From: Raillietiella orientalis
Lineage: Eukaryota
Assembly (NCBI GenBank): GCA_036172245.1
Contig: JAYWIR010000043.1
Location: 124,001 to 188,000, forward strand
Length of the DNA: 64,000 nt
Direction of reading: 5' to 3'
Shown here: piece after piece, positions 24,613 to 60,500 of the stretch
Numbering within the stretch: the first letter of the stretch is position 1
How the letters are laid out: each line of letters opens with the position of its first letter
Notes under the pieces: model-generated
What the model saw: only the letters and a program-made list of their open reading frames with translations
Told to the model about the DNA's origin: nothing
Database searches by the model: none
Translations under genes and position numbers: made by a program

Positions 24613-26718
24613 TTGCCACCCGGGAGGCCCGGGGCGTTTATTAATAGAAAACTCTACAATCGCAGTACCAGGCCCCGCTCACGGCCCTATGCACAAGACC
24701 TACCGGGACGCCGGGACGCAGCCCGGCGTGGCCCTCCCCGACAGCGAAAGGAGATGGTGAAAAACAAAAATAAAAATAAAGACGCAAACAAACAAAAGAG
24801 GTTGGAGGGCAGGGAAGGGATCACTGTTCGCTGAGAGGAGGGCCCATCCGTTGAAGAAAGCCTTCGAGGTCCATCCGTATATTCCCCAGTTGGGGCCATC
24901 CAGCAGATCTCCGCAAGAAGCGTTGGGCATATGGGATAACATCCCTCGCGTGTTGACCCACTCCTTCCTTCTTGGTGTCGCTCCATGCCGCCACCATGCC
25001 TCGGTTGCAGCACAAGGCTGCAAGGGCTGCGGCTGGCTGCAGGGCGTCCTTCACGAAGAGGGGCCGAAGAACGTCTCTAGGGGAACTGCCCGTAGGGAGA
25101 CCGAGGGTCGTCCCAAAATGTTCCCAAAGGGGACAAAGGGCAGCGCAGTCCACAATAAGGTGATAGAGCGATTCCCGCTCTCCGCACCTGACACACAAAG
25201 GATCCACAACTCCTCTTGTCCAGTGGGAGCGGCGTGCGTTGCAGCGTAAACCCCAATGCAAAAACAGCAACTTCGACTCTTTTCACTTAAAGGGCAGGAT
25301 CCTCGATTCCTGAAGAAGCGGAGGCCACTTCAGCACATCCATAGGGATGCCCAGCAGGTCGACCTATCTTCTTAGTCCTCGCGGCTGGACGCACAAGGTC
25401 GTGGCTTCCGCCAGTTGACCAATGGACCAGCCGCTTATTCTTTTCTCCCGTCCCTCGATGCAGCAGGAGACTTGCCTCCTTGGCGTCCGACCGCTGTGAA
25501 GCGCCTTCCTCAGGAAGGGCAGCGCCGTAGCCAGGCGGGTTGTCTCTGCCCACGTGCTTCTAGCTGGATTCTCCAGGAGATTCTTCAGAGTGCAGCGGGC
25601 GCAGGGGCCGCATCGGAGACGATTCCACGTTACGTAGCTTCTCCGGTTCACCACATCCCACGTTCCAATGTTCTCCACCATCCAGGCGGAGGACTTGGCG
25701 GGGCAGCAAACCATCCAGCTGTTCTCCATGGCCAACGATGCCATGCGCCCCAGCTGTAGGCCGCATCTTCTGATCTTCCGGCCGGGGATCAAAAGAAAAG
25801 ACGCGAGTCCCTCCACCGGGACAAAGGACTGGCGAGTAGGCGAGTCGGAATGCACCACGGGGTGCTCCACATCTTCGTTGCGATGGCGAGGGTACGCCAT
25901 CGCAGCTGTTTCTCCACGCGCTCCAGCGTCAGGAGGCTAAGTCCACGGTCCCGACGATTAGCAAAAAGGTCCTTCAAAGGGACTCGGGGACTCCTCTTGC
26001 CCTAAAGCGGGATGCGGAGGAGGTCCTTCGTCCTCTTTTTAACAACTCCCAGGGCGGGGCAAACAAAAAGCAAGGGGCGGACGATGGGGGCGGCAAAGGC
26101 GTTCCAAACCGCATCCCGTTCCGGCAAGGGAAACTTGCATTCCAGGAACGGGCCGATCGCCGTCTCGACTTTTTCGAGGCAGCTGGACCACGCTGCCGCA
26201 GGGGAGAAGTCCCCCAACGGAACACCAAGGTACTTGATGCACCTCGCAGTGAGGATCCCCAGACGGACCCAGTCCTGCTGCCCTGCCCACGCCGCACCAA
26301 CTGGCACCACCGACGACTTCGTCCTGTACACCTGCAGCCAGGTCCCGCGGCTGAGCAGCTCGAAGAAGTCTCCGACGGCCTTCGCCAAGGTAGACATAGG
26401 TAACAAGAGCAAAAGATCGTTGGCATAAACACTGACGGCGGACTTGCCGGGGCACGAGCTCGGCAAGGGGGCCAAAGTCACAATGCACGCTCTCAGCACC
26501 AACTCAAAGTAAGTGCTAAAGAGCAGGGCACTGAGACTATCTCCCTGCCGTATGCCCCGTTGCACCGGCACGCCATACACCTTGTGACCGCTGAAAGAGA
26601 CGGTAATCATCGCATTCTGCAAGCAAGAGCGCAGGTAGGAAATCAAGGAGGGTGGGAAGCCCATGCGAACCAGGAGCTCCAAGAGGAGTTCCTGGTCTAG
26701 ACAGTCAAACGCCTTGCA
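24613..26718 (-). mobile_element. L1-B: 3' part of an L1/Tx1-like element (RT C-half, CCHC, 3' UTR), interrupted at the KAFD motif by L1-C
   Basis: RGIRQGDSLS, YAND (mutated YADD), IKYLGV, CVRCGERESLYHLIVDC; ORF2 stop at 24821; terminal AATAAACGCCCCGGGCCTCCCGGGTG on the minus strand at about 24617-24642. Confidence 0.92.
26705..26718. repeat. Degenerate target-site duplication of L1-C (partner 55615-55628)
   Basis: TCAAACGCCTTGCA vs TCGAACGCCTTGTG; both derive from TCGAACGCCTTGCG by CpG deamination. Confidence 0.75.
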
Positions 26719-28096: not shown

Positions 28097-28109
28097 GCGG
28101 CCAGTAGGA

Positions 28110-28121
28110 GGACGTGTTTTT
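28110..28121 (+). promoter_or_regulatory. Conserved 5'-terminal RGACGTGTTTT motif, candidate internal promoter element (also 26730, 36238, 55640 on +; 53248-53259 on -)
   Basis: Found 2-13 nt inside the 5' junction of five elements whose 5' UTRs otherwise differ. Confidence 0.6.
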
Positions 28122-28195
28122 CCTTCACTCCCCAAAGAGTAGTAGGAAAGCGCTTTTTCTTCTGTGTGGTGTTTTGTGTACATCGTCGGTGTCCA

Positions 28196-29946: not shown

Positions 29947-30363
29947 CACCTGGGCTCGCCAGTCGCCGTCGGATTCGCGCGGCCTGGTGGAATGTCAACG
30001 GGCTGCGCGACGACGGTAACAGGCGAGATACAGCCGACACCCTGCGGGAGTTCGACCTGGCCCTGTTGCAGGAGATCCACGTGATCACCGCGGCAGACGT
30101 CCAGGAGATCGAGACGATCGCGGGGGGTCGGCTGTTTGTCACCCGGGTGCGCCGGGGCGTTTATTATAAACTATCCGGGAACAGGGTTCCCGGACAAAGG
30201 GGAAAACAAGAGACGAAGGGGGTGGGATCCCCGACACGCAGGTCGGTATGCCGAAAGTCCGGAACGGGAGGGAAGGGACCACAAACACACTACTATATAA
30301 AAAAATAAAAGAAAAATATGGAGGGCAGGGGACAGGGGTCTTTGGTAAATGCGTTCCTTCCTT

Positions 30364-33300: not shown

Positions 33301-33926
33301 ACCCGACAATGCAGGTGATCGTCGAGGAACACATGGTCCGGCAAAGCACGCATTCCGGGATCGTCGGCCAGCAAATTCGAGGCGTGCACCGACGCGCACA
33401 CCTCGTTCACCAGCCGTTTCTCCCGGCGACGGTGAGACTCCTCCGATAGCGCGTGGACGTTGAAGTCCCCGGCTACGAGGTGAGCCACGTCGGGGCCGGA
33501 GTTGCTGAGCCAGCGGTCGCGCAGTCTCTCGAAAAACTCCAGTTTCTCGGTGTGACGCGCGGAGCCGCTCGGCGCGTACACGTTCGTGACGACAAGGTTG
33601 ATCGATTCGGACCACTTGAGAACAAGTTGGCCCACACGACCTTCCTCGTCGAAACAAACGCTCCGCACTGCTCCCGCCACCCTGCCCCGGACAAGGAATG
33701 CGACTGCGCAGGTATTCTGGGAGCCTGACCTCCAATGGAGCGTCCCGCCTGCGCGAACTTGCAGATCGGCCGCTTGCTGCTCGGAGAGTGCGTCAATCTC
33801 CTGCAGCAGGGCCAGATCGAAGTCGCGCAAGACGTTGGCAACCAATCGCCTCTTCTCGTTGTCCTGCAGCCCGTTGACGTTCCAACAGGCCACTCGGACG
33901 CGACGGGAAGAAGCGAGACCGCGCAT
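30364..33926 (-). pseudogene. L1-E ORF2 (APE endonuclease, RT, CCHC)
   Basis: WNVNGL, LLQE, GDFN, SDH, KAPGEDG, DLRKAFD, YADD, CKRCGEVETLPHLLLD; stop at 32142 and frameshift near 31060. Confidence 0.95.
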
Positions 33927-33931
33927 TGCTG

Positions 33932-35866
33932 CTACGGACATGGAAGTGCGTTCCTCGCCCCGTCCGGCGAGGCATCAGCCGGGAGCACGGCGGATGAGGT
34001 AGCGCAAGCGCTTCCTGTCCCCGCCGCGCCGCTCGCGGCCGGCTCGGTCGAGTCGAGGACCATTGCCTCGGGCTCCGAAGAGCATCGAGAACCGTTCCCG
34101 GCATCAGGCTCTTGCCTGGCAAGTTTTGGCTTGCGCGCAGCCCTGGCCTTGACCGGGGCTTGGCGAGCCTTAGCGCTGCCCTCGGACTCCACCTCGGAGT
34201 CCGAATTGCGCGCGCGCGGCGGCGGGCGTTTCGCCTGCCTCTTTGTTTGCTGGCAGCCCGGAGCTGGTCCAGCACTCTTAGAGGGCGCCTTCGTCGCCGA
34301 TCCCCCTTTCGGGGTCACGGCTTCGGCAGCTCCCCTCTCGCCGCGGGTGTTTGCGGCGGCGCGCGCGGCGGCAGCAGAGGCTTTTCCTTGCGCCTTTCTG
34401 GGCGCGCGGAGTTGCCTCTTCACCCCGCCTACCTTTTGGATCGGGAAGTGGGAAGGATCGCGCGGTTTGCGCTCCTTCTTTCCCCCGACGAAGGTCCAGC
34501 CATCCTCGCCGCCTTCCTGTTTGTCCCGGTTGGGCGCGAGGGCTTCCAGGGTCCTTCGCATCCTTTCCAAGGCCTCGGATGCGGCGATGGAGGCCAGTGT
34601 CTCCTTCGTCACGTCTGCCTTCTGCACCTCCTTACAGGAAGGTGTGAGCAGAGTGGCGGGATTCTCGTGGGTTGCGCGAGGCTTTTCAGCCTTTGCTGGC
34701 ATTCGGCCCGCCGTGGCCGGCTTGCCTGTCGCGGGCAAAGGGGCGCGCGACCCCTTTTTCGACGCTCCGGTGGTCTTCCCGGGCGTGCCACCGCTATTTC
34801 GCTCCGGAGCGAGAGCGGACGGAAGCGGCGGTGGTTTTGCAGCCTGCCCGATGTTATCGGCGGGCTGGGTCGCTCAAGGCTTTACTGAAGCAGCCTGGAG
34901 GAGCTTCTTGTCCTTTCGCGCAAGTTTTGGTGGAGCATTGCTCCGAGAATCGCCCGCGCAAGCGGACTTTTCACTTCTCCGCTGAGAATGCTCGTTCGCG
35001 CCTGATTTCTTCCCCGACGACGGGGCGGATGGAGTCGGCGCGGACGGCGATGTTGCGGGGAGGTTTCTCGCCCTCCTCTTTCGTTTCAGCTCGGCGCACT
35101 CGTTAATCGAGTGGCCGAGCAGCTTACAGTATCGGCAACTGCGTGTTGGGCACTTCCGCGGACGGTGGCCCTCCTTCCCGCAGTTGCCGCAAGCGGGGGT
35201 TTGCCCGGCAAACCGGAGATAGACGACGACGTCACCGAGGAGGATCTGCGAAGGCATGAGCCTCCGGTCGTCCATGGTGACGCGCGCCGTCGCGAGTCCG
35301 CAAGAGAGGCGCGCGACTTTATCGATCGGGTTCGCGCGCCTCCACATCGCGTGCACTGTGGCGAACGCCTCGAGTGCAACAATGATGTCGCGGTCCGTTA
35401 TTCTCGGCCTAATGCCCGAGAGCTGGACCACGAACGATTGATCCAGGGCCGAGGGGACGACCTCCTTACCCCTGATTTTCAGGGGGGTTCGCAGTAGGCG
35501 CTGGACGAGGGCTGCATCCTTGCAGTGCACCTCCCAATGGCCTACCGCGCTCACTGGCATAATTGCCAGAAGATCGTCCTCTCGGACCCCTACGCGTTCC
35601 AGCTCGCTCCAGAGCTGGTTGCCCGTCCCATCCCGGTACGCGGCACTGACCTTGTAGGCCAGAGGGGGGTTGTAGCCGTTAGCGGCGTACGCCCGCAGTT
35701 CTGCCTCGTCGGGTGAAACTCCGTGAGCCGCCGCTGCCTTAGCAACGGCGGCAAAACTTCTCGCTGGAGGCGAGGGACGATCGGTGGAGGCTTCCGCTCC
35801 TCCCGAAGAAGGTCCTGCGACGCAGGGTGATTCCTCCACCTCCATTTCTGCGGGCACTGGCTTCAT
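33932..35866 (-). pseudogene. L1-E ORF1 (gag-like, 2 CCHC)
   Basis: MKPVPAEMEVEE...RSFAAVAK...CGNCGKEGHRPRKC...CRYCKLLGHSINEC; one in-frame TGA at 34874-34876. Confidence 0.9.
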
Positions 35867-36309
35867 TTCCAAATGAAAAATCCAACCACACCCAAAAGGA
35901 ACAACCGCAAAGAAGCACCAAAGACGGAGCGCCAATGGAGGGGGTCGGCTGTACTGGCAATGCGGCATCCGCAACACCTGCGGGGTCGCGTTCTTCGTGA
36001 AGCCGGCCATCGACGCTGCCGTGAAGGGCGTGCGCTTCGATGACGACGGTCGGGTCGGTCAGCTGACTCTCGGCTGGTCCGACTCGATCGATCTGATCGT
36101 CACGAATGTGTACGCCCCAACCGGTCAAAAGGGATACAGCAACCGTACCAGGCTGCTTGAATCCTTGAAGCGCGACTGGCTGGCGAACACGAGCGTGCGG
36201 AAGGCTCACCTGAAAGCGGGAGATTTCAATCGAGTGCGGACGTGTTTTCCTTCGCTCTCGTATCCGTGCTTTCATCCGCTTCATCTTGGCGTCGTACATT
36301 TTGACGACG

Positions 36310-38232
36310 ATGTCGACCCAACTTGAAGCTACTGAAGTTGGAGGAACAGCATCCGGATCTGCAATCGCGGAACCGACGGCCGCCTCCACTTCGTCTTTCT
36401 CGCCGATGGAGAGGAGTTTTGCTGACGTTGCTGCCACAGCAGCCGTCAAAGGGAAACCACTCGACGAGTCGGAGTTGCGAGCATACGTAGCCCAAGGCTA
36501 TAGACCTGCTCTCCGATATAAGGTGAGTGGCTTTCTTTCTGCGCGCGACGGAAATCAGTTCAACGATGAACTGACCCGTGTTGGCGTGCGGGAGGAGGAC
36601 CTTCTCGCCATTATGCCCGTAAAAGACATGGGCTATTTCAAGGTGCGTTGCAAAGACGCTGCACTGGTGCAACGTTTGCTGCGCACCCCGTTGTCGATCC
36701 GTGGCCAGAAGGTCTTCCCGGCCGCCATGGACGACTCATTTGTGGTGGAGATTTTCGACATCGAGTCGGAAATCTCCGATACTGATATTCGGAACGCGTT
36801 GGCGAAATTCGCCACGGTCCATGCGCTGTGGAGGGTGCGTAGCAACCTCAAGGACTTCCTGTCCATACAAAGCGGAGTCGCTGGAGTCCGGCTTACAATG
36901 CCGGACCGCCGTCTGCTGCCCACCAAACTACAGGTGAAAGACACGGTCGTTCACCTGTGGTTCGTGGGCAAAGTAAAAACGTGCGAGCAATGCGGGAAGG
37001 AGGGGCATTGTTTGGATAAATGCCCCTCTGGAAAATGCCGTTATTGCAAACTATCCGGGCACCAGTTGAAAAATTGCCCGGATCTTTTGCGAAAAAAGGC
37101 AGCCGCGGAGCTCCATTTTAAAAAACAAAACGCGGATAAAAAAAAAAAATCTGCGAAAAACCTGCAGACCCCACGGCAGAAATTCGGTAAAAACGCGAGG
37201 CGGAATGTCGCCCCAAAGCAGCAGGACACCTCGCACGCGAAGCCCTGCGCACCCCCTCTGCCGGCAGGGGAGCCGCAAAAGAAAGGGTGCGGGGAATCCG
37301 GAGCAATGGTAAGTCCCCCTAGGCGCAATAGCTGTCCTTCCCAAGCACGCCCGGCTCTCTCGGAGTTCGAGCAACCGGCGTGGACGCCAATGGACAACGG
37401 CGGTAAGGACACTTCCAGTACCGTCAGATCCATTCCTTCACCTCCTGCAGTGGCTGAGAAGCCCAAATCGGGTAAGAAGTGTTGTGCCGTTTCGACTTCG
37501 AAAGTCGGCAAAAAAAAATCCGCGTCGCGATCCAACACCGCGGAAGCGGAGAAAAATCTCACGCCGTCGCAGTCGGAGAGCAAGCTCTCGACTGGCGCGG
37601 ATGCCATGCCAACGAAGGGATTAAAAGCCCTTCCGAAAGCAGCGTCCATGACGAGCGTGTCGGAGCCATCGAAAGTGCTCCCGTCCAAAGACGCGGATGG
37701 CTTCAAAGATGGCCATGGAGCACAATCTCCATTTACGGCGCCACGCGAAGTAAGGAACCGTAATGAAGTAAAGAAGACTTCAGCAAAGGTCCCTCGTGCA
37801 ACTGCGCGTGAGCACGCTGAAAACGCGCGCGCCGGGAAAGCAGCCGTCACCAAAAGCGATGCTCTGGTGACGGAAAACGAAAACAGGACAGCTGTCAATC
37901 CAGCAGAACCTGTCACTGCTTCGCGGAAGGCCGAAACCCGATCGAACATGCGCCGGTCGGACTCCGAAATGGATGCCGTTCCGATCAGCGAGACGAGGAC
38001 AACTCGTTCAAAAGCGTGTGCGCGCCGATCAAAAGTAGGCAGCCAGGCAACGCTCGCCGCGAAGCAACGCGAAGTCTCCACGAAACCCGACGGGGTTCAG
38101 CCTGGCGTGGAGGCATTACTTGCATGCAGCACGACAGAGGACGGTGGCGACCGTCCCCTCCAGCCAGTCGTGCTGCTCGCCGTCTGCTCGCCGAATAAAG
38201 CGAGCAAAAAGCCGCCACCTTCCCAGCAGTAA
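36310..38232 (+). CDS. L1-F ORF1, intact gag-like protein (~640 aa; RRM-like region, 2 CCHC, long basic/low-complexity tail)
   Basis: Uninterrupted frame 36286-38232, first ATG at 36310; RSFADVAA, CEQCGKEGHCLDKC, CRYCKLSGHQLKNC. Confidence 0.9.
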   Translation: MSTQLEATEVGGTASGSAIAEPTAASTSSFSPMERSFADVAATAAVKGKPLDESELRAYVAQGYRPALRYKVSGFLSARDGNQFNDELTRVGVREEDLLAIMPVKDMGYFKVRCKDAALVQRLLRTPLSIRGQKVFPAAMDDSFVVEIFDIESEISDTDIRNALAKFATVHALWRVRSNLKDFLSIQSGVAGVRLTMPDRRLLPTKLQVKDTVVHLWFVGKVKTCEQCGKEGHCLDKCPSGKCRYCKLSGHQLKNCPDLLRKKAAAELHFKKQNADKKKKSAKNLQTPRQKFGKNARRNVAPKQQDTSHAKPCAPPLPAGEPQKKGCGESGAMVSPPRRNSCPSQARPALSEFEQPAWTPMDNGGKDTSSTVRSIPSPPAVAEKPKSGKKCCAVSTSKVGKKKSASRSNTAEAEKNLTPSQSESKLSTGADAMPTKGLKALPKAASMTSVSEPSKVLPSKDADGFKDGHGAQSPFTAPREVRNRNEVKKTSAKVPRATAREHAENARAGKAAVTKSDALVTENENRTAVNPAEPVTASRKAETRSNMRRSDSEMDAVPISETRTTRSKACARRSKVGSQATLAAKQREVSTKPDGVQPGVEALLACSTTEDGGDRPLQPVVLLAVCSPNKASKKPPPSQQ

Positions 38233-41200
38233 TGCGGGGAATCGCGTCTTCTCGTCGTCTGTCGGTAACGTGTTGGAATGTGAACGGACTGCAGAACGAC
38301 GAGAAGAGGCGATTAGTAGCCAACGCCCTGCGCCCCTTCGACCTCGCGCTGCTGCAGGAGATTCACGTAATCTCCGACGAGCAGGCAGCCGAAATCGAAG
38401 AGCGCGCAGGCGGAACGCTACATTGGCGGTGCGGCGGAGCACACACGTGCGGCGTCGCGTTCCTCGTAAGAGGAAAAATGGCGGAAGCGGTGCGCAGTGT
38501 TCGTTTCGATGACAACGGACGGATAGGCCAGCTTGTCATCAAGTGGTCCGTGTCCATCGATCTCGTCGTTACGAACGTCTACGCGCCGAGTGGCTCTCGC
38601 TACCTCGAAGAAAGAGTAGCTTTCTTTGGTGAGGTGCAGAGCCAGTGGCTCAACAACTCCGGCTTCCAAGTGGCGCACCTCGTCGCTGGGGACTTCAACG
38701 TCCGCCTGCTCTCCGACGATTGGAGCCGCCCGAGGGAGCGCGCGCTGCCCATCGAGATGTGCGCGTCCGTGCACGCCGCCAACTTGATGGTCAGCGAACC
38801 TGGGATGGGAAGATCGCTCGATCACGTTTTCCTCGATGAAAACCTGCATTCGCGTGTGGGTAGGAGAGGAAGATTGTTGACTGAGCTTTCTGACCACCAC
38901 AGGTTGGAGTTTGAGATCCTTCCGCCAGGCAGGGGGCCTCCGTTGCAAAGCTGGAGGATGCAGGCGGATTGGCTTAGCCAACCGGAGGCTGCGGAGCATC
39001 TACGTGGATACCTCCGGGGCTTTGCCATTCAAGAACTTGCGGACTGGGACGATCTCAAAAAATCTGTCCGCGAGTTCTGTTGCCAATTCCCCTTGCACCG
39101 GCTTCCACGCGGTTTCGGAGAGGGCGTGGCCAACAGTAGAGACTTTCTGCAGGCCCGCACGTTTTCGAGACGCGCGGATGTCGGGCGTCTCGCAGAGTAC
39201 AAGGCGAGGGCCGAGCGCCAGGTCTGGCAGTCCGGAGCAGCAGGCCTGTTGGACGACAAGGGCCAGGAATGTTCGGCCCCAGCCGAAGTACGCCGCATTG
39301 TGAGACGCTACTACTCCTCGCTCTACGCGGAATCCCCGACGGAGGATATTCTTTCTGAGATACTCCTGTCTCAGGATGCTCGTGTTGTCGGCGAGGAGGA
39401 ACGCGAACGTCTCGACGAGCCCTTCACGGCGGATGAATTTTCGTCCGGCATCGCTGGGCTGAAGAGACGAAAGGCGCCAGGCGAGGATGGGCTCCCTGCA
39501 GAGTTTTATCAGTGCTTTGCAGTGGAGCTCATTCCCTTGATGCTGAAACTCGCGACGCTGATGAGTGAATCCGGGAATGTCCTTGAATCCTTCCGCTCAG
39601 AGAAGGTGCGTCTCCTGCCGAAAGGCGGAGACTCGCGCCAACTTAACAACTGGCGTCCGATCACCTTGGTGAACTCGGACGTCAAGTTGTTTTCCAAGCT
39701 GTGGGTCGCGCGGTTAGGAAGAATCGCGGAATCTGTGTTGAGCCCGGAACAAACCTACGCGGTTCCGGGACGATCCATGGAGGCGAACATCCTTTTCGCG
39801 CGTACATGGATGCAGCTGCAGGAAGTTGTGGCGCAGCAAAGCCAGGCTGCTGCGAAAGTCACTGCCGCAGGCAAAAAGAACAGGCGCCGACGGCAGGAGG
39901 GAACGCAAGGTGCCTTGGCGGTCGCGGTCGATCTCCACAAGGCGTTCGACTGCGTAAACCAGAAGCTGCTTTTGGAGCTTATGGAACGCCTTGGGTTCCC
40001 GGCGCAACTCCTGCTGTATTTGCGCGCGTGCTGGCACCACGCGCTAACCTGCATTACTTTCAGCGGCTGCCGCGTGTATGGTATTCCCGTTCGTAGGGGC
40101 ATCCGACAGGGCGACAGCTTAAGCCCGTTGCTCTTCAGCATCTTCTTTGAGTTGATGCTAAGAGCATACAGGCTGACGCTGTCTCACTTGCCAAGCTCCT
40201 GCCCGGGAACGCCTGCCGTGGCCGCCTACGCTGATGACCTGCTTCTTCTGCTCCCCATGTCCACCCCGGCGTCCAGTGTCGAGGATTTCTTCGACCTGAT
40301 TCGTCGAGGAGCGGGCGTGAGCGTGAACAGAGAGAAGAGCGTGGTCGTTCCTGTGGGTACGTCGTGGGAGGGGCAGTCCGACTGGATCCGCCTGGGGATC
40401 CCCACGGGCGGGTACTTTGAGTACCTTGGCGTTCCGTTGTGCGCTTTCGGCGCAGCCGTAGCGAGGACGGACTGTCTTCAGAAAGCAGAGTTGACCATCA
40501 GCCCGTTCTTTAACGGCAAGTTTACCTTGCAGGAACGGGCGACTATTTGGAACACCTTTGTGGCCCCCCTCCTCCGTCCCCTGTTTTTTGTTTGCGACCT
40601 TCCCTATGCGGCAAAACAGCGGGCTAAACGCCTGCTCAGGAACGCTCTCTGGGGTCCGGCGAGATCCAGGATCCGCTTTAAAGATTTGTCAGCTCCTCGT
40701 CGGGATGCTGGTTTGGGTATCCTGACAATGGAGCGAATCGGACTGCAGGTGCAGTTCCGACTGCAGGCACTGTGTGCCCAGCTATGGACATCCCCCCTGT
40801 GTGTGCCAGCTCGCATTCTCCTGCGGAGATGCGCCGGCAGTGGAAGATTTCTCTCGCTTTTGCCGGGCACTCAATACAGGAAGCGGGGTTTCGGGTTTCC
40901 ATTGCGGCAGTTGACCGCACTTCTGGAAGCACACTCTTGGATCTCCTGCCGCCCAATGAACTTTGAAGCTTGGCGGCAGGAGTCTGTTGAATCCTGGGCG
41001 ACGTTCCAAGGAATACGCCCTGAAGATCTTCGCCCCCTGCGCCAATTTTTTCCACGATCCTTGGGAGAAGGACTGCAGGACGAGGTGAAGTTTTCTACCC
41101 TGGCTGCCACGCCTCTTGCCGCAGCGCTGTCTGCCCTTAGGGCGAGAAACGACAGTTACCAACCGGCGAGGTGGGAGGTTTCCTGCACGATAGCGGGAAG

Positions 41201-41825
41201 AACCAAACTCCTTGGCACCTGGAAGACAAGTGAGTTGGCGGACGCCGCCACTCCTCGTGTTACTGCAAAGGGACTCCTCCGGTGAGCAGAAGAACTTGCT
41301 GTCACCCCCGAAAAACTTGTAGTCCCCCCACAGTGTATAAACAGTTCGCTGCTCCCCCTTGCTTGGAAACAAGCCGTGCTGCTTTTCGTTCACTGGGGTT
41401 TTCAGTGCAACGAGCGTTGGCATCGTGACTCCGGGGGACTTGCGTCTGCGAACTGCGTTCGGTGCGGATCGACGGAGTCGATTCCCCACCTACTTCTGGA
41501 CTGCGGTGTCCTACAAGGACTGTGACGTAGGCTGGCAACAGCACTATTGCATCCCGTGGACACCGCAAGAGACTTGCTGCGACGATTCTTCACGCCGAGC
41601 GGGCTTTCACTAAGCGCAAGGATTGCAACCATCGGTTGCATACGCGCGATAGTTTCCGTCCGCCAGGCGTTGGTAATCAACGGACAGCACCAAGAGGTAA
41701 TCAGCAAAGCATCCTTTTACATGGGAGCATCCGCTAGATGGCCTCATTTGACAGAGGAGATAAAGAGGAATCTCGCCGCAATACACCGCCGGTTTACACA
41801 CCCTCATCAGCGGCCAACCCGGTAA
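38232..41825 (+). pseudogene. L1-F ORF2 (APE endonuclease, reverse transcriptase, CCHC), ~1197 codons with two nonsense mutations
   Basis: Open for 1017 aa (WNVNGL, LQE, GDFN, LDH, SDHH, KAPGEDG, NWRPITL, DLHKAFD, QGDSLSP, YADD at 40227-40238). TGA at Trp positions 41283 and 41523; same frame continues through CVRCGSTESIPHLLLDC to 41825. Confidence 0.96.
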
Positions 41826-42147
41826 TCATTGCCCTACCCTCCATAAACTAAATTTGCATTTTCTTTTTACACCCGCGTCCCCATAGGCTCCGGAACATTT
41901 TAGGTGCTCATCGTATAAATCCCCGTGAGTACGGAGCCTAACCAAAAACCCGTTACCCTTCCCTCCAATTTTTGATTTTTGTTTGTTTCCCCTCATTCCC
42001 CCCACGCTGCGAGCGGTTTGTTTACCAGGCTTGCGTTCCGATAATTTTTCTATGTTCTCTGTCGTTCTCTTGGTTGGGAACATGGTCCCTGACCAGTTTA
42101 TTATTATTAATAAACGCCCCGGCGTGGCAAGGTGATAAATTTCAATC

Positions 42148-45100
42148 TCCGCCTACTAACAGGTGAGCCGGAAACACAGGTGAACGCGATGAACGAGTTG
42201 TGCGCCGCCATGCGTGCGCGCAACTTGTTCGCGGGTGAGAGGGGAATGGTCCGTAGCATCGACCACGTCTTCCTCGACGCTGACCTGTGTTCACGGGTCG
42301 GCAAACGGGGGAGGGTTGCGTCAACGTTGTCGGACCATTCCCGGTTAATTTTCGAGATGCGGCCTCGCGACAAAGGACCGCCATTCAGAGACTGGCGTCT
42401 GCCGGGGGACTGGACGCGACTCTCAGGTGCGAAGGAACACCTTCGCGAATACCTGAGAGGCGTCACGCTCCGGAATCTCCAAGACTGGGACCTTTTTAAG
42501 GAATCGGTCCGGGAATTCTACGAGCAGTTCCCCCTGGACCGCCTGCCCTCCGGATTCGGCGAGGGTCCTTGCAACCATCGGGCCTATTTACAGGCCCGTA
42601 GGTACGAGCGAACCCCTAAAGTCCGTCGCCTGGCCGAGTACCGCGCCGGGGCCGAACGCCAAGCCTGGCAATCCGAATCGGCCAGCTTGCTGGACGACCA
42701 GGGCCGGGAATGTTCGTCCCCGGCGTCGGTACTGCATCTCGTGCGGAGTTATTATTCCTCCCTTTACGCCAGGGCGCCCCCGGATCAAGATGCCTCTCGG
42801 CTCTTGCTTCCGGATGGTGCCCCGGCAATAGGGGAGGAGGAGTCGTTAAGCCTCGATGAGCCTTTTACCACTGGCAAAATTCTCGCCGGTATCAAAAGGC
42901 TCAAGAGACGGAAAGCTCCAGGGAAAGACGGCTTGCCCGCGGAGTTCTATCAGAGCTTCGCGGAAGAGCTGGCACCCCTGCTGCTTCAGCTGAAAAGGCT
43001 GATCCGAGACGAAGGCGATGTTCCCGCCTCGTTTCGGTCAGCCAGAGTGAGGCTCTTTCCGAAAGGGGGAGACCTTAGGAATTTGAACAACTGGCGTCCG
43101 ATCACGATTGTGAATACGGACGCCAAGTTGGTTGCCGGGCTATGGGCTTCGCGTCTGGGGCAGGTGGCGGAATCCATTATTAGCCCGGAGCAGAGATATG
43201 CTGTTCCCGGGCGAAGTATGGATGCCAACCTCTTCTTCGCGAGCACGTGGTTGTACGCGCAGAGGTGTCGAAAGGAAGGGAAAGAAAAATCGGCAACCCC
43301 ACTTTGGGGCCGCCAGCAGGGCAGGGAATGGACTCCCGGGCGGGGAAGGGGGCCTTAGCGCTCGAAGTCGATCTCCATAAGGCGTTCGACTGTGTTGACC
43401 AGGGGCTTTTGTTGGAGCTCCTGGGTCGCATGGGCTTCCCACCCTCCTTGATCAACTACCTGCGCTCCTGCTGGCGCCATGCCATAATTTCCGTCTCTTT
43501 CAGCGGTCAGAAGGTGCATGGCGTGCCAGTGCGGCGGGGCATCAGGCAGGGAGATAGCCTGAGTCCCCTGCTCTTCAGCACCTACTTTGAGTTGGTGCTG
43601 AGAGCCTACAGGGTGACTTTGGCCTTCTTGCCTAGCTCGTGTCCCGGCACGCCCGCCGTAGCAGCCTATGCCGACGACCTTCTGCTCCTGTTACCTATGT
43701 CCACCCCAGCGAAGGCGGTCGGAGACTTCTTCGATCTGCTCAGCCGTGGGACCGGACTGCAGGTCAACAGGGCGAAGTCGTCGGTGGTGCCAGTAGGTGC
43801 GGCGTGGGCAGGGCAGCAGGACTGGGTCCGTCTGGGGATCCCCACGGCGAGGTGCATCAAGTACCTTGGTGTGCCTTTGGGTGACTACTCCCCTGCGGAA
43901 GCGTGGTCCAGCTGTCTTCAGAAAGTTGAGACGGCGATCGGCCCGTTCCTGGAAGGCAAGTTTCACTTGCCGGAACGGGCCGCGGTTTAAAACGCCTTCG
44001 CGGCCCCCATCCTCCGCCCCTTGCTTTTTGTTTGCCCCGCCCTTAGAGAATGCAAAAAGAGGACGAAGGACCTCCTCCGCATCGCCCTTTGGGGCAAAGG
44101 GAGGCCCCGAGTCCCTCTGCAGGACTTGTGCGCTCCGCGTCGGGACGGCGGCCTTGGCCTCCTGACGCTGGAGCGCGTGGGAATCCAGCTGCGGTGGCGA
44201 ACCCTCGCCATCGCAGCGAAGATGTGGAGCACCCCTTGGTGCGTTCCGGCCCGCCACCTTGCCAGGCGTGTGTCCCGATGCGAAGGACTCGCGTCGTTTC
44301 TTCTGTGCCCTGGCCGGAAGATCCGAAGATGCGGCCTTATGCTCGGACGCATAGCAACCTTGGCGAAGACGAACGGTTGGATGGTTTGTGGCCCCGCCAA
44401 CTCCTCCGCCTGGTTGGAGGAGTCTGCTGGCACATGGGCTAAGCTGAACCGGAGAAGTGAAAACCACATGAACTGCCTTCGAATCGGCCCATACGCCAAC
44501 CGCACCCTGCGGGAAATACTGGAATTCCCCCGGAGTCGCAGGTGGGCGTTGACGACCCCCCTTGCTACGGCGATGCCCTACCTCCTGAGGGCGCTCCAGG
44601 ATCGCCAGAAGCCGAGGTGGAAAGTCACCTGCCAGATCGCAGGCAGAGAGAAGATGTTAAGCGGCTGGACCACAAAAGAACTGGCGGACGCCACGACCCC
44701 GAGCGTCCAGCCGCGTGGATTAATGAGATGGGGCGAGCTGCTCGCCATCCCTACGGATGTGCTGAAGTGGCCGTCGGTACTAAAGGAATCCAGGATCCTG
44801 CCCCTTAAGTGGCAAGAGTCGGCGTTGCTACTGCTGCACTGGGGATTACCCTGCAACGCACGCCGCTTCCACTGGACAAGGGGAACTGTGGATCCTGAGT
44901 GTGCCAGGTGCGGAGAGCGGGAATCGCTCTCCCACCTTATTGTGGACTGTGCTGCCATCCGACCCCTCTGGGAACGGTTCGGGGCGACCCTAGAGCTCCC
45001 TACAGGCAGCACCCCCAGAGACGTTCTTCGGCCCCTCTTCGTGAAGGACGCACTGCAGCCAGCCGCAGCCATCGCAGCCTTGTGCTGTGTCCGTGGCATC

Positions 45101-45274
45101 GTGGCGGCATGGAGCGACGCCAATAACGAAGGAGTGGGTCCACACGCGAGGGATGTCATCCCATACGCCCAACGCTTCATGCGGAGAGCTGCCGGATGGC
45201 CCCAACTGGGGAATATACGGACGGACCTCAAGGGCTTCCTTCAACGGATGGGCCCTCCTCACAGCGTTCAGTGA
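42148..45274 (+). pseudogene. L1-D ORF2, main part (EN C-half, RT, C-terminal CCHC)
   Basis: IDHVFL, SDH, KAPGKDG, NWRPITI, DLHKAFD, RQGDSLSP, YADD, KYLGV, CARCGERESLSHLIVDC; frameshift near 43300, stop at 43988. Confidence 0.93.
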
Positions 45275-45368
45275 TCCCTTCCCTGCCCTCCAACTTCTTT
45301 TTGTCTGTTTATGTTTTTTATTTTTCTTTTTGTTTTATCCCCATCCCCCTTCGCTGCTGAGGAACGCT

Positions 45369-45493
45369 ACGCTGGGCTGCGTCCCGGCGTCCCGGCAAGT
45401 CCAGTGCATATGGCCGTGAGCGGGGCCTTGTACCGCGGATGTAGAGTTGTTTTTTTTTAAAAAATAAACGCCCCGGGCGTACCCGGGTGTAAA
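45369..45493 (+). promoter_or_regulatory. Conserved structured 3' end: CUGCGU stem-loop, AATAAA, terminal hairpin ending GGGTG
   Basis: Equivalent modules at the 3' ends of L1-B, C, E, G and I, and degenerate in F. Confidence 0.75.
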
Positions 45494-45875
45494 CCTCCAA
45501 GGCTGGCAAGAAGGCCGTAAGGCGTCCGGCCTCCCCTCAGGAATCCCCCACTTCCGACCCCGAGGTGCAGGCCTGAAGCACAGCCTCCCTTTCCACGGCA
45601 CCGTGCAAGAAGGCTGGACGTAAGTCCACAAAGCCAAGGAAGCTCGTCTCCCCCTTCGAAGGGGAAGAAATGGCTTCCGCAAGCGAGGGTGCCATGAACG
45701 TGGGAAACCCTCGGGACCCGTCGCCCTAGAGACTCCCACGCGCGGACACGGAGGGGATGGAGGGAGTGGAGGCCGAATAGGTGCCTCAGGTGCCTGAGAA
45801 GTTCGAAACCCCCATGGAAATCCCGCCCGCCTCGCAAGAGGAGGGCTCCCCTACACCTTAATCTTCCCAGCAGTA

Positions 45876-47336
45876 ATGCCAAGAATCACCACCCGCCGTC
45901 GTCTGCGCATCGCCGTTTGGAACGTGAATGGCATGACAGACGCCGGCAGGAGACGAGACATATTTGCCCTTCTGGAGTCCTACGACCTTGCGCTGCTGCA
46001 GGAGATCCACGTGATCTCTGCAGAACCAGCGCAAGAGATCGAAAGGATCTCCGGAGGACGGCTATGGTACAGGTGTGGGAGAGCGAGAAGTTGCGGTGTC
46101 GCCTACCTGCTTCGGCCAGCCGTCGAGACCGCGGCTCGGGGCGTGCGGTTCGACGATCACGGTCGTGTCGGCCAGCAGACTCTCAGGTGTTCCGACTCGA
46201 TCGATCTGATCGTCACGAACGTGTACGCACCGAGCGGCAAGGACCTGATGAGCAGGAGGGCGAGGAAAGAGTTTTTCCTTGCCCTCCGGAGAGACTGGCT
46301 GACCGAAGAGGCGTGCGGAATGCCCATCTGGTTGCAGGCGATTTCAACGTTCGCCTGAAACCAGATGAGCAGAATCCCGAGCGTGACCTGGTGAACGAGG
46401 TGTACAAGGCGGTGCACACCTGCAATTTGTTGGCCAGTGCACCGGAGATGGTAGACAGCATTGAACACGTGTTTCTTGACGAGCTCCTGTGCCCTCGCTT
46501 GGGCAGGCGTGGCAAGTTACCGTGCGAGCTCTCCGACCATCGCTTGCTAGTCCTCGAGATCCATCCGCGCGACAGGGGCCCCCCCTCGTCAGCGTGGCGT
46601 CTCCCAGGGGACTGGCTGACGCTCGCGGACGCGGCGGAACATCTCCGCACGTTCATACGGAACTTCAGGCTACGGACACTCCAGGATTGGGATCGCTTCA
46701 AGCAGTCGGTCCAGGATTTCTGCCACCAGTTCCCTCTGCACCGCCTACCTACGGGTTTTGAGACCAAAGTACGTAACGAAGAAGCCTACCTGCATGTCCG
46801 TCGTTACGCGAGGACCCCCGACATCCGCAGGCTGGCGGAATACAAAGCGGGAGCTAAGAGGCAAGCCTGGCAGTCCGGATCGGCCAGCTTACTGCACGAT
46901 CAGGGCCAGGAGCACTCGGCACCTGCCCAAATTTGCGGCCTGCTTCGGAGTTACTACTCCTCCCTGTATGCCAGGGCACCTCCGCAGAGGAACGTCTAAC
47001 GACTCCTGGTTTCGGAAGGCGCTCCAGCGATCGGGGAGGAGCAGAGAAATATTCTCGACGAGCCTTTGACGATGGACGAGATCCTCTCGGCCATCGGAAA
47101 GCTCAAGAGGCGAAAGACTACAGGGGAGGACGGCCTGCCCGCGGAGTTTTATCAAACTTTCGCGGCTGAGCTTACTCCCCTGGTACAGCAACTCACCTTG
47201 CTGATACGCGAAACAGGTGACGTTCCCGCCTCGTTTCGTTCGGCAAAGGTGCGGCTCCTCCCTAAGGGAGGAGATCTGAGGAGCATGAACAACTGGCGTC
47301 CCATCACAATAGTGAATGCGGACGCCAAGTTGCTGG
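45876..47336 (+). pseudogene. L1-C ORF2, 5' part (endonuclease and RT N-terminus)
   Basis: MPRITTRRRLRIAVWNVNG, LQE, GDFN, SDH, NWRPITIVNADAKLL; several lesions. Confidence 0.9.
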
Positions 47337-47541
47337 TTGCCACCCAGTCACGCCGGGGCGTTTATTAAAAATTCTCTTTGATTCGTGGTACGAGGCCCCT
47401 CTGCGGCCAACTCAACTGCACCTCCGGGTCGCCGGTACGCAGACCGGCGCGACTGTCCTCGGCAGCGGAAGGGGGTGGGGAAAAAACCCCAAAGAAAAAT
47501 AGAACATAAAAACAAAAAGATTTGGGAGGGTTGGGGAGGGA

Positions 47542-51129: not shown

Positions 51130-53173
51130 TACTCCTGGGAAAGTGGCAATGGGGCTCCCGCCACCTGGTCGGGCGGGACGGATGGAGGCATGGGGGCACC
51201 GCCCAGCGGTTCTCCCACCTCCATGGGGGCCGATTCCTCGGCGGACCGCAAGGGTTGAAGGGAGCATGCTTCACGCACCTGCTTCCCCTCTTCCATGGGG
51301 GCCGATTCCCCGACTGCGATGGACGGCAAGGGGGAGCGGTTCTCAGCTGTCTGCTCCCCCTCTTCCATGACCATCTTCTCCGCAGGCTCCACCGGTGGAA
51401 GGGGGAGGCAATGCTCTACCTGCTCCCCCTCCTCCATGGGGGTGGCCGGCTGCTCGGTGGCGGAGGGTGGGAGAATTCCTCCCTCCGTTCCCACGCTGCC
51501 AGCTTCCCCCTCGGCTGCCGGTGCGTCCCCCTCGCTCTTCGTCGGGATGCGCCTCTTGGGATTCCTGGACTTCCGTCCAGTCTTCTTCGGAGGCGCCTCC
51601 GTGGAGGAGGACGCACTTCCGGCATCCGGGTCGTGGTCACCTGTCGGAGATGCCCTGGTCGCTGCTGGCCTTCGCAAGGCCTTTCGCGCGCCGTTCTCAC
51701 GGTCGGCGAGTTCGGCCGCGAGCTCTTCCGCCGCCTGCTGGAAGGCGGCCTCGTCGATCGCGGCGAGCGCGTCGCGCGGTTCCCCCTCTGTTTGCACAGA
51801 GGGTTCGCCTTCCGTGATCGCGTTATCGTCGGCGTCGACGCGGGGGAAATCTCCCCCGGTGGCGGTCTCGGGTACCTCCACACGCTCCAAAGCGACCGAA
51901 CATTCGCGGATCAACGCGCGGCGTTGTCTCCTATTTAAAGGAGACGTCGCGGGTTCCGCTGTCGATCCTTCGGTTTTCTTTGGTTTCTTAGCTTTAGGCT
52001 TCGCCTTCTGCCAGCCTTCGCTCTTTTCAGCGTGGTCGGTAGATTCCACGACCGGCGTTTGCTGTACGGGCTCGGGCTCCGCCTATGGGTTCCGCTCACG
52101 GGTGCCTTCGCAGGGTTTTCCGTAGCCTCCGCGCGTTTCCCTTTGGCCTTTTTCAAGGCAGCGGGAGCCAGGGGTTCGCGCTTCGGGCACACTTTGCGGA
52201 GGTGGCCCTTCTCTCCACAGTGGAAACACTGGATGTGAGGGCACCGCTTTTTCAGGTGCCCTGTGGCATCACAGTGTCCACAGTATTTGGGCTTGCCCAC
52301 GTACCAGACGTCGAAGGTCTCGTTGCCGACGTCTAGTTTGTGGGGTAGCCTACTGTTTTCGTGGACGGTTACACGCGCACCAGCCATGCCACTAAACAGT
52401 CTTCCGTAAATCTGGAAGACGTTGGGCTTGGGCCATACCTCGTGAACCGTTCCGTATTTTCCGAGTTCCTCCTGCACGTCGGCTTTCGACATGCGGGGGG
52501 TGACTCCCGTGAGGTGCGTCACCACGAAGCGATCCTCCGTTACCGGGAAAATCTTTCGGCCTTCCAGTGTGATTGGCGCATTCAGGAGGTGTTGAGCAAG
52601 GCTTGCATTTCTGCAAGTCAGCTCCACCCGCTGACCACCACTCAACACGGAAAGACCTTCCAGGTCTTCCTCTTTTACGTTCAACCGCTGCAACTCCCTT
52701 TCGAAGTTGCGAGCGGTGTTCCCGACAAACAGATTGCCTACCTTGTATATCAGGGACGGCTTGTGTCCCTGCTCCAGGTAGGCTTTCTGCTCGGCGAGGG
52801 CTGCAGGAGATGGAGCTGCAGCCACTGAACTCCAGGTCCTCGGCGATGCCGAAGACGCATTCGAGGGTGCAGGTGCCCCTTTTTTGAAGGAGGCGGTTGC
52901 GCCCTTTTCCAGGGTTGCGGTTGTCCCCTTTTTCAAGGAGGCGGTTGCGCCCTTTTCCAGGGTTGCGGTTGACCCCTTTTTCAAGGGGGCTTTTGCCCCC
53001 TTTTTCAAGGGGGCCTTTGCCCTCGCTTCCGAGGCGGCGGTTGCCCCCTTTTTCAGGGGTGCGGCTGCCGTCGCCTCCGTGGGGGCGGTTGCCTCCACCT
53101 CCGTAAATTGGGGAGAGGAACAAGCCTCTCCCCCTCCTATATCCATCGCGGTGTCCTCAGGCATTTCTGCCAT
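51129..53173 (-). pseudogene. L1-G ORF1 (gag-like, 2 CCHC, KKGA and PMEEG repeats)
   Basis: MAEMPEDTAM...CGHCDATGHLKKRC...CFHCGEKGHLRKVC; frameshift near 52090; ends PLSQE*. Confidence 0.9.
52875..53060 (-). repeat. Coding minisatellite (24-bp unit) in L1-G ORF1
   Basis: Encodes APLKKGA / APLKKGS / ATLEKGA / ASLKKGT / ASFKKGA octapeptide repeats; absent from the other ORF1s in the window. Confidence 0.85.
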
Positions 53174-53276
53174 TGGACACCGCAGATGTTTCACACACAA
53201 ACACAAAAGAAACCAAACGCTTTACACCAGGCGCGGAGGAGCGCTACAAAAACACGTCTGCACGCCAAGTTGCTGG

Positions 53277-55395: not shown

Positions 55396-55628
55396 TACCT
55401 TCCCGTACCCTCCCAGTTTTTTCTTTTCTTTCTGTTTTCTTTCTTTGTTTTTCTGCTTTCCCCCTGCTGCCGTGGTGGACCGTACCGGTCTTCGAACCAG
55501 TGACCCGGCAGGCTCTGTGTTTCTTCGTGCGTGGCTGGAACAATGGTCCAGCCACTGCACGTCTTTGTAAATGTTTATTTTAGAATAAACGCTTCGGTGA
55601 AATCCGGGTGAAAATCGAACGCCTTGTG

Positions 55629-57541: not shown

Positions 57542-60500
57542 TTCTCACCCGGTCACACCGGAGCGTTTATTTCATAGAATATGAACAAAAACAATCATAT
57601 AAAATAAACCAGCTGCCATGCTGTCAACCGACGACTGAACAAGGATCAAGAAAAAATTGCTGGCACGTAGGCCAGAATAACACAGAACGGTGTGCGAAAA
57701 CTGGGAACACAAGCAAACAAAAACAAAAGAAAAAGAAATCAATGGGGGACGGCGGGACAAGTGTCTTTGGGATCGCTCGGGTTCACAATGGGATAAAAGT
57801 AATGGAACCGGCAGTTTAGCAGAGCGAGCGGGAAAGGGGTATGGATTGGCTTCAACACGTAGTGATCACCGGATTAAGCCGTTCTTAAAAGTCTGTAAGC
57901 CGGCGATGGATGCTGGCGATGTTCTCTTTGACCTCGTCACGAAGATAAGGCCACCTATCTACCTTTTCTATGGATTCTGCTGCAAACCGTTGAGCCTCAC
58001 TTCGCTGCGCTGACAACACCAGGGCGTAGCAAGCCTTCACGATGGCGCGAAAGCAACACACGGTTGCGACAATGGCGCCTACCGAAAATCTATTCCTCCT
58101 GAAGAAGCGCCGCAGCACATCAATAGCAGTGCCACCCTGCGGCAGGATTGCTGAAATCAGCCTTCGCCAAAGTTCACGGAGGTTACCGCAGTCCAGCAAG
58201 AGGTGCGGAAAAGACTCTATCTCTCCGCACCTCAAACTGTTTGGCAGAGCAGCTCCCCCGGGAACGATGCTTCGCAGCCGATTATAGTGGAAGCCCCAGT
58301 GAAAAAGAGCAGCACATCTTGTATCTACTTTAACGGGAACACGAAGCTGTCCAATCAAACGGGAGGAACCACTATCTCTTCCGGGGTTACACTTAAGTGT
58401 TCACTCCACCGAAGCAGGCCTTTCGCCCGATTAAGAGGAGTGGCAGTTTCCACCAGCTCCTTTGTCGTCCAGCCGCCGAGGAGCTTACTGACTTCCGCTA
58501 TTGTGCAGGAGAACTGAAACCTCTTTGGTAGGCAACTGTCGTCGCTTGCCCTGAGGGCAGACAGCGCTTCGACGAGTGGTGTGGTGGCCAGACGATCCGT
58601 CTTCTTCTTCTCCTGCTTGACTTGATCCATTGGATGACTGATGAAAAGTCGCAGGCGCCGGATATCTTCCGAGTGCGTTTCTTCCGAAGCTGCCCACGAT
58701 GAAAAAGATCCCTGCCGACATGCATTAATGTTCATGAGGCGGCAGGAGATCCAACATTGGGCTTCTAGCAGTGAGGACAGCTGCCTCAGCAAGAAGCCAA
58801 ACCTTATTCTGGTGTGCCGAAACTGGGGCAGCAACGAAAGCAGTCCCTCGTTTCCCGTACAGCGCGTCAGTATAAGTCGTGCAGGTAAGCACCACGGCGT
58901 ACACCACAGCTTAGCACAGGGTCGCAGAATTCAAAACCGCACCTGCAGCTCTATGCTTTTTAAGTATAGGATGCCCAAGCCTGCATCCTGACGCGGCGCC
59001 ACCTAGTCTTTAAGTCTTACGCGGGTTCTTGCAGCGCCTGACAACGTTTTGCGTAGAAGGCGCTGCGTCCAGACATTGACTTCCTGGGAGGGTGGACAAA
59101 CAAAAAACAGGGGGCGCAGGAGAGGGGCAAAAAAGGTGTTCCAGATGCTGGCTCGTTCCGGCAAAACGAACTCGCCTCCTGAGAAAGGTCCAAGTGCACA
59201 CTCTGCCTTCCGAAGGCAGTCCGACCACGCTTGAGATGCAAGAGTCGCCCAACGGCACGCCAGTGTACCTTAGGTACATACCCGTGGGCATCCCCAGGCG
59301 GATCCAGTCGGACTGCCCGTCCCACGTGGCTCCAACCGGAACAACAATGCACTTGCTCCTGTTGACGCTCAAGCCCGCACCGCGACGGATCAACTCAAAG
59401 AAATCTTCAAGCGACACCGCCGGGTTGGACATGGGCAACAAGGGAAGCAGGTCGTCGGCATAGGCTGCCACAGCCGGCGTACCTGGACAGGAGCTCGGCA
59501 GGTTGGCTAGCGTCAGCCTGTAAACCTTCAGCACCATTTCGAAATAGATGCTAAAGAGCAGCGGGCTTAAGCTATCACCCTGCCTAATTCCTCGCCTAAC
59601 CGGCAGGCCGTACACGCGACAGCTACTGAAAACAATGGATGTAATCGCGTCTCGCCGGCAGGAGCGCAAGTACGCCATCGGGGATGCCAGGAGCCCCAGA
59701 CGTTCCAAGAGCTCAAGAAGAAGCTTTTGGTTCACGCAATCGAAAGCTTTGTACAAATCGACTGCAACCGCCACAGCTCCCGGGGTTTCCCTTTTCGACC
59801 CGCGCATTTGTCGGTGAGAGATCAAAGGCGTCGCTTCCGCACGACGATCCACCGCTACACGATGCTGCAATTGCAGCCATGTGCGGATGAACAAGAGATT
59901 CGTGTCTATGGACCGCCCAGGAACAGCGCACGTCTGCTCCGGACTTACCAAGGATACGGCGATCCTCCCCATCCGCGCCACTCAAAGTTTAGAGAACAAC
60001 TTGACGTCCGAATTCACTAATGCGATCGGACGCCAATTGTTAAGTAGGCGCAAATCTCCGCCTTTCGGCAGGAGACGCACCTTCGCTGATTGGAACGAGG
60101 CGGGGACATCCCCCGCGTCTTGCATCAGCGACGAGACCTGGAGCACTAGGTGGGTGAGCTCCGCCGCACAACACTGGAAGAATTCTGCGGGGAGTCCATC
60201 CTTGCCTGGCGCTTTCCGTTTCTTGAGTCCCGAGATGGTCGAAGAAATTTGCTCTCCCGTGAAGGTCTCATCGAGACGCACCGCGTTCCTCCTCGTCTAC
60301 GACTGGTGCATCAATCATCAGAAGCAGCTCGGAAGGACTGCGTTCCGTTGATGTCTCTGCATACAAAGAAGAGTAATAGCGCCTAACTATCCGCCGCACA
60401 TCGTCTGGAGCCGAGCATTCCCGGTCCTGGTCGTCGAGCAGAACTGTCACTTCTGACTGCCAGACCTGGCGCTAAGCCTTGGACTTGTACTCGGATAATT

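Follow-up and report, generated by a model that had tools for sequence, protein, structure and literature searches.

A shared 3'-terminal hairpin and a start of copying fixed to one base in tail-less retrotransposons assigned to the L1 group

The retrotransposons described here have a start of copying that does not vary by even one base and lies four bases past a GC hairpin near the 3' end of the element. All seven 3' ends visible in the window (the whole stretch of DNA that was analysed, 64,000 nucleotides) consist of AATAAA, a GC hairpin ending in GTG and a tail of the form NNAA. A first-pass annotation of the window had listed these tails, and every one was found exactly as given; the helices upstream of AATAAA and the NNAA pattern, with its invariant AA, come in addition to that annotation. 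As a whole, the data are best explained by a start of copying that a tag in the RNA would set, combined with a tail that would be the root of a poly(A) tract, an explanation that we moderately favour.

The shared end in the window and in the genome

From about 23 kb onward the window is, by self-alignment, a nest of non-LTR retrotransposons. Upstream of it lie a 99-base N gap (845-943) and about four tandem copies, about 99% identical, of a 5.7-kb unit (944-22565), for which Rfam, tRNA and Pfam searches (the last on the frames scanned) gave no match. Element D, spanning 28108-45493, is apparently split by elements E (antisense, 30136-35939) and F (sense, 36236-42138); D is itself inside the ORF1 region of another element, and its 5' flank and 3' target match only in part. 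A GCGGACGTGTTTT-like motif is common to five 5' ends (26728, 28108, 36236 and 55638 on the plus strand, 53261 on the minus strand); it resembles the (A/G)GACGC(G/A) motif near the starts of frog L1 elements (PMC5381506) and may be an internal promoter.

The layout of the end can be followed in D, whose parts are all on the plus strand. The C-terminal part of its ORF2 (43991..45274) carries a CCHC zinc motif, with a zf-RVT match (E 0.0015) below the curated cut-off, and gave no sequence match in the PDB. The 3' UTR (45275..45462) contains a pyrimidine/T-rich block, family-specific stems, a TGTA at 45440 and a U-rich stretch able to pair with AATAAAC. AATAAA (45463..45468) has the consensus of a poly(A) signal and may in addition serve as the 3' arm of an AU helix; it is followed by the 21-nt terminal GC hairpin (45469..45489), which has a near-invariant stem and a family-specific loop and ends in GGGTG, and by the 4-nt tail TAAA (45490..45493). 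Target DNA resumes at 45494, a junction confirmed by an empty paralogous site near 57006. The other modules are those of elements B (24613..24642, minus strand, tail GCAA), E (30136..30165, minus, ACAA), F (42109..42138, plus, ATAA, with a decayed stem), G (47337..47366, minus, GCAA), C (55584..55614, plus, AAAA, where the target begins TCGA) and I (57542..57571, minus, AGAA). Allowing up to two mismatches, the end motif has nine matches in the window against a shuffle mean of 1.2; seven are exact, and the two with two mismatches are unrelated. Rfam and ARAGORN gave no matches in the window, which means that the hairpin belongs to no known RNA family and is no tRNA.

The same end recurs throughout the genome searched (210 Mb in 491 contigs). 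The head motif has 2,113 matches in the whole assembly against 2 for the control, and head plus 3' arm define 1,678 ends against none, although these are related copies and the counts overstate their independence; the NNAA tail is present in 1,525 of the 1,678. In metagenome and viral contigs, a set from which records near this genome were possibly excluded, the motif had no match. A detailed set was built from 120 distinct ends, taken from fetched loci and from the window; four with a poor 3' arm were dropped, and the resulting 116 include five loci chosen for A runs and a few near-duplicates. Homology to the ORF2 C-terminus lies within 700 nt upstream in 92 of them. Each position of the terminal stem is paired in 104 to 114 of the 116 ends; the stem is conserved more than covarying, with few compensatory swaps (three T-A), while the loops are family-specific. 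This 30-nt end is held in common despite reverse transcriptases (RTs) that are 53-89% identical, as would be expected of a tag under selection; the ORF2 C-terminal stretches of other copies are 27-85% identical to that of D.

Conservation is uneven within the tail. Position +3 is A in 111 and position +4 in 107 of the 116 ends; +1 and +2 are variable, and NN takes 14 forms. Among 100 listed ends selected without reference to the hexamer, AATAAA is exact in 74; of the 26 that vary, judged by eye, 25 have single changes spread across the hexamer. The AA has decayed by about 4.6% per site, as calculated from the 1,525 intact tails, which equals the decay of AATAAA; thus, both were probably invariant at insertion and NN was free.

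Junction register, targets and copies with A runs

An unrestricted search for target-site duplications (TSDs) gave about 11% false calls (25/232), and for this reason calls with boundaries set by homology, or by the 5' motif, were used. On this basis a TSD of 9-19 bp was found in 36 of the 116 ends. It begins at offset 4 after the hairpin in 23 of these, and 11 more are compatible with that offset, giving 34 of 36: three read as offset 3 through a shared A, two as 0 in same-site tandem copies, and six as 5, 6 or 8 through a mismatch or indel in the first TSD bases. The remaining two, at offsets 7 and 16, are copies with A runs. In the window, the TSDs of E (a perfect 13 bp, 30123-30135 and 35940-35952), F (nine exact bases, 42139-42147 and 36223-36231) and G (a perfect 15 bp, 47322-47336 and 53262-53276) all begin at offset 4, while no convincing TSD was found within the window for B, C, D and I. 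Family C, which comprises 145 copies by pattern, is the most regular: among 25 further ends, 13 have a TSD, 13-16 bp long and at offset 4 in all 13, and by eye none of 120 listed junctions is out of register. A further set of 34 ends from older, decayed copies, mostly with a mutated hexamer, gave ten weak calls, four at offset 4 and six elsewhere. Some copies also gave seeming TSDs some 1,060-1,170 nt upstream; these resemble sequence internal to the element and were set aside.

Two other kinds of insertion were observed. L102, L022 and L112 are same-site tandem insertions, with two copies in series and one TSD between them. At L107:6650-6720, on the minus strand, a 38-nt insertion is flanked by an 11-bp TSD; the copied part includes just 8 nt upstream of AATAAA, and the tail is still 4 nt long.

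In vertebrate L1s the 3' end is formed by AATAAA and poly(A) (PMC5381506), and the ends seen here could be ordinary L1 tails that were eroded, or collapsed by the assembly. The probability of this is close to nil: perfect 13-16-bp TSDs lie exactly four bases past the hairpin, the 120 listed family-C junctions have no length spread, and the assembly retains many A15 runs as well as the tail of L097. The family-C TSDs and the register of the listed junctions refute both erosion and collapse, which the first-pass annotation had considered unlikely for the former. Since erosion cannot yield such a pattern, the start of copying is fixed, as that annotation had proposed in placing it just after the hairpin; its further proposal, that the fixed start corresponds to the cleavage and poly(A) site, is plausible and somewhat better than balanced.

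The annotation had also named long poly(A) tails on copies elsewhere in the genome as evidence that would speak against it; the proposal withstands this check, a single long-tailed copy, L097, having been found. Two patterns quantify this scarcity: A8 within 8 nt of GGTG has two matches genome-wide, in one of which the run is part of the TSD, and NN followed by A5, with a looser head pattern, has four; one copy is common to both sets. L097 carries T plus A15 before an 11-bp TSD at a homology boundary, and L098 carries AC plus A5 before a 15-bp TSD; both were selected by the search for A runs. In each the run lies outside the TSD and begins inside NNAA. Conversely, the A's of L031 and L099 belong to the TSD, and L100 is without boundary support. 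L097 and L098 are most simply read as copies of an RNA that was cut within NNAA and polyadenylated. The A's may also have been added without a template; at SART1Bm junctions, A runs of variable length arose from tail-less templates (PMC7265360).

The first bases of the TSD form a motif that differs from family to family, such as ACARC in eight family-E sites and TCGAR in family C; CCAG is another target start. Targets that begin with TCGA, ACARC or CCAG cannot pair with poly(A), and it is such pairing with the target that is favoured in human L1 priming (PMC3649969). Across the nick, family E has a purine at -3 in all eight sites, and family C has G at -4 in 9 of 13 and G or C at -1 in 12 of 13; this bias is weaker than the motif at the TSD start, the strongest information being at TSD +1 to +5, on the primer side. 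Moreover, 125 of the 145 family-C copies have C at +8, and many of these share a single nested site. Target information that is gapped and two-sided fits a read-out by the endonuclease, i.e. by protein. Families G, C and I insert antisense into sibling elements, within conserved coding motifs of ORF2, and the base hit is identical at independent loci (47322, 55615 and 57541 in the window; L033, L054 and L091).

How the start of copying may be set

In the explanation that we favour, the 30-nt end would act as a stringent RNA tag that sets the start of reverse transcription, while the endonuclease of each family would pick the insertion site. By analogy with R2Bm, it is very probable that ORF2p binds a structured end, composed of an upstream family-specific stem, an A-rich hinge and the terminal hairpin, and thereby places base +4 at the nicked primer. 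Little or no pairing between primer and template would be required. A stem also narrows the start for human ORF2p (PMC10830416). Conversely, human ORF2p primes best with four paired bases (PMC3649969) and the stem is held about 15 nt from its active site (PMC10830416), against 4 here, while unpaired starts of R2Bm are less precise (PMC10499050); these three observations count against the explanation, as do the six of ten weak TSD calls that fall at other offsets in the older ends.

The RNA end itself may well arise through ordinary cleavage and polyadenylation between +2 and +4, with only two A's copied, and we lean towards this origin. The AA would then be the root of the poly(A) tail, renewed at each jump, whereas NN drifts; the rest of the tail would be bypassed by internal initiation or trimmed to the footprint of the protein. 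This reading is supported by the animal host, by an AA as conserved as AATAAA while NN drifts, and by the two A runs that start in NNAA. The host is indicated by an actin gene of animal cytoplasmic type in the same genome, which has AATAAA about 50 nt past its stop. Genome-wide, the signal of retrocopies with AATAAA followed by A15 is 101 against 104 in the control. A decayed actin copy at L124:1050-2360, which has lost the first intron, kept the second and carries A10 about 13 nt past AATAAA, is either a partly processed retrocopy or an old duplicate, not a clean retrocopy. The lack of a U/GU-rich downstream element (the T fraction downstream of the junction is 0.20), which is due to the target following directly, counts against the explanation.

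The 75 nt upstream of the end fold better than shuffles (mean z -1.5 over 115 ends, vs -0.2 to -0.4 in control regions), whereas folding of the entire 3' UTR of D shows no such gain (z 0.04). Within 45 nt upstream, GTTTRTT, the complement of AATAAAC, occurs in 36 of 116 ends; shuffles give 3.1, and a control block just as rich in T gives 6 of 115. In the 21 cases where the helix that it can form with AATAAAC has a loop of at least 5 nt, the adjoining pair is Watson-Crick in 14, against 7.2 expected. More generally, upstream pairing of AATAAAC exceeds that of shuffles (mean 0.47 vs 0.25), and TGTA is found upstream in 53 of 116 ends against 26 by shuffle; given the relatedness of the copies, the pairing and TGTA figures are indicative.

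Such a complement could mask the AAUAAA signal, which counts against an origin by polyadenylation and underlies an alternative involving read-through and target pairing, as for R1Bm and for R2 with 3' homology. Here AAUAAA would be masked in the helix, Pol II would run into the TSD of the donor copy, and its first four or five bases would pair with the nicked strand and fix +4; pairing would thereby reinforce the target motif of each family, and AA would be kept because ORF2p reads it. We regard this, the main alternative, as rather unlikely, yet as having real arguments behind it. In HIV-1, polyadenylation is repressed by a hairpin that occludes the signal (PMC2645353), R2Bm starts become precise through homology (PMC10499050), and R1Bm needs downstream target sequence (cited in PMC7265360). 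In the elements described here the helix has a covarying extension, the first four or five target bases are family-specific and hold the strongest target information, and the sites of both copies with A runs depart from the family motif at the start of the TSD, which would fit a failure of pairing. However, no clear 3' transduction was seen among 49 boundary-confirmed TSDs, and L194, in which the first base is changed in both TSD copies, is still joined at +4. Furthermore, the information at -1, -4 and +8 is beyond the reach of short pairing, the complement (as a strict motif) is absent in 80 of 116 ends, and an exact AATAAA would need a separate reason.

A broader proposal built on read-through is that an animal L1-group lineage replaced poly(A) priming by self-renewing target pairing, with AAUAAA masked, read-through into the old TSD and four or five bases, held in register by the hairpin, priming the next site. 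It is speculative and rather improbable; if true, one and the same 30-nt tag would be used by many families whose targets differ, and an L1-type enzyme could employ it as a portable module that allows insertion without a scar and with single-base precision.

AATAAA might also not be a poly(A) signal at all, being instead a hinge rich in A, or one arm of a helix, to which ORF2p binds, with the +4 end made by another cut or by exonuclease trimming to the hairpin-protein complex. ATTAAA is a usable variant of the poly(A) signal. Among 38 hexamers varied at position 2, AG accounts for 20, AT for 13 and AC for 5, so that ATTAAA is not clearly favoured; this would suit a hinge, as would the upstream pairing of AATAAAC and the requirement of R2Bm for conserved hinge adenosines between two stems (PMC10499050). 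On the other hand, it would be coincidence that the sequence equals the animal signal exactly, stands at a workable distance and has TGTA enriched upstream, and the A15 of L097 begins at this very point, so that a hinge without signal function appears quite improbable.

Classification and comparison with known elements

The domain content points to retrotransposons of the L1 group (L1/Tx1) with an APE-type endonuclease. An APE endonuclease (PF03372) followed by an RT (PF00078) is found in the frames 38199-41285 and 32142-33974; the former, on the plus strand, is ORF2 of element F, with an early stop after 1028 aa. ORF1 of F (36214..38232, plus strand) is without Pfam match, while the sibling ORF1 frames 27056-29593 and 51935-53221 contain zf-CCHC. 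The best solved RT relative is human L1 ORF2p (E 3e-44, vs 2e-13 for R2). In a FastTree phylogeny of 125 RTs, those of the window cluster as a single clade on a long branch, inside a group of 98 members (support 0.87) that has vertebrate, plant and fungal matches without clade labels; support for the sister group is 0.51, in a set of homologues with no labelled Tx1 reference. Further features of the L1 group are present: a C-terminal CCHC, separate zf-CCHC ORF1 frames, TSDs of 9-19 bp and many 5'-truncated copies. The animal host and the preference for target sequences are Tx1-type features, and membership in Tx1 is plausible from host, ORF1 and targeting. The canonical features of vertebrate, relaxed L1s, i.e. 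poly(A) after AATAAA and an A-rich target start, are lacking, whereas the conserved 3'-terminal stem-loop of stringent-type LINEs is present. A LINE of that type would moreover depend on the stem-loop, bound by its ORF2p, for retrotransposition, would leave host mRNAs unretroposed and would share its tail with a partner SINE. The only close relative outside is P0002, a JGI protein from a 2,870-base contig, which nests within the RT clade of the window at 59-78% identity; a search with it gave seven distant loci only.

A near-total absence of the poly(A) tail is unusual among relatives of human L1 and points to a start of copying set by structure. An L1-type RT with a minimal 30-nt tag, no tail and one-base junctions over about 1,700 copies would offer a simple test system for ORF2p starting without poly(A)-T pairing, in which sibling families that differ only in loop and target would serve as built-in swap controls; for RNA-based gene insertion, too, a short tag that gives precise junctions without a tail is of interest.

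No description of this type of end was found in the open-access papers searched; closed-access work, Repbase or supplements may already describe tail-less Tx1 members. Among animal L1-group elements, Tx1L, Keno and Tx1-Mar likewise prefer sites inside other transposons (PMC4494074), and a zinc-knuckle ORF1 is common to Tx1-clade elements (PMC5203782) and to those of the window. In the portion of PMC4494074 available, no description of the 3' junctions of Tx1L, Keno and Tx1-Mar was found; the SINEU partners of Tx1 elements carry poly(A) (PMC4494074).

A conserved 3'-terminal hairpin is also known in other L1-clade elements, namely the monocot 1a in ME1 and Chlamydomonas L1-1_CR (PMC3747384). 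L1-1_CR and most plant L1s end in poly(A) (PMC3747384), whereas the elements of the window are tail-less; further differences from monocot 1a and L1-1_CR are the animal host, the one-base junction and an AATAAA that abuts the hairpin. It has been proposed that relaxed, poly(A)-dependent L1s derive from a stringent ancestor, and the stringent L1 examples given with that proposal still end in poly(A). In the L2 clade, UnaL2 and ZfL2-1/2 resemble the present elements in a shared 3' stem with a family-specific loop, which in those elements is bound by ORF2p (PMC4176376, PMC3747384); they belong to a different clade and end in short tandem repeats (TGTAA in UnaL2), while the window elements have no repeat.

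Human L1 is alike in an ORF2 with APE, RT and CCHC, in TSDs, 5' truncation and a terminal AATAAA, and in that a stem-loop can narrow its start site; however, it needs about 20 A's and T-rich primers and leaves variable tails (PMC10830416, PMC3649969, PMC5381506), whereas the targets in the window cannot pair with poly(A). In the 3' UTR of R2Bm, which likewise has no long poly(A), a pair of stems, a hinge with A's and a short tail ending in A together set the start (PMC11194090, PMC10499050). R2 differs in its single ORF, restriction-like endonuclease and rDNA target, and the RTs of the window are far closer to human L1 ORF2p, which places the elements outside R1 and R2. Thus, the elements are best described as having a stringent, R2-like structured start of copying in a lineage of the L1 group.
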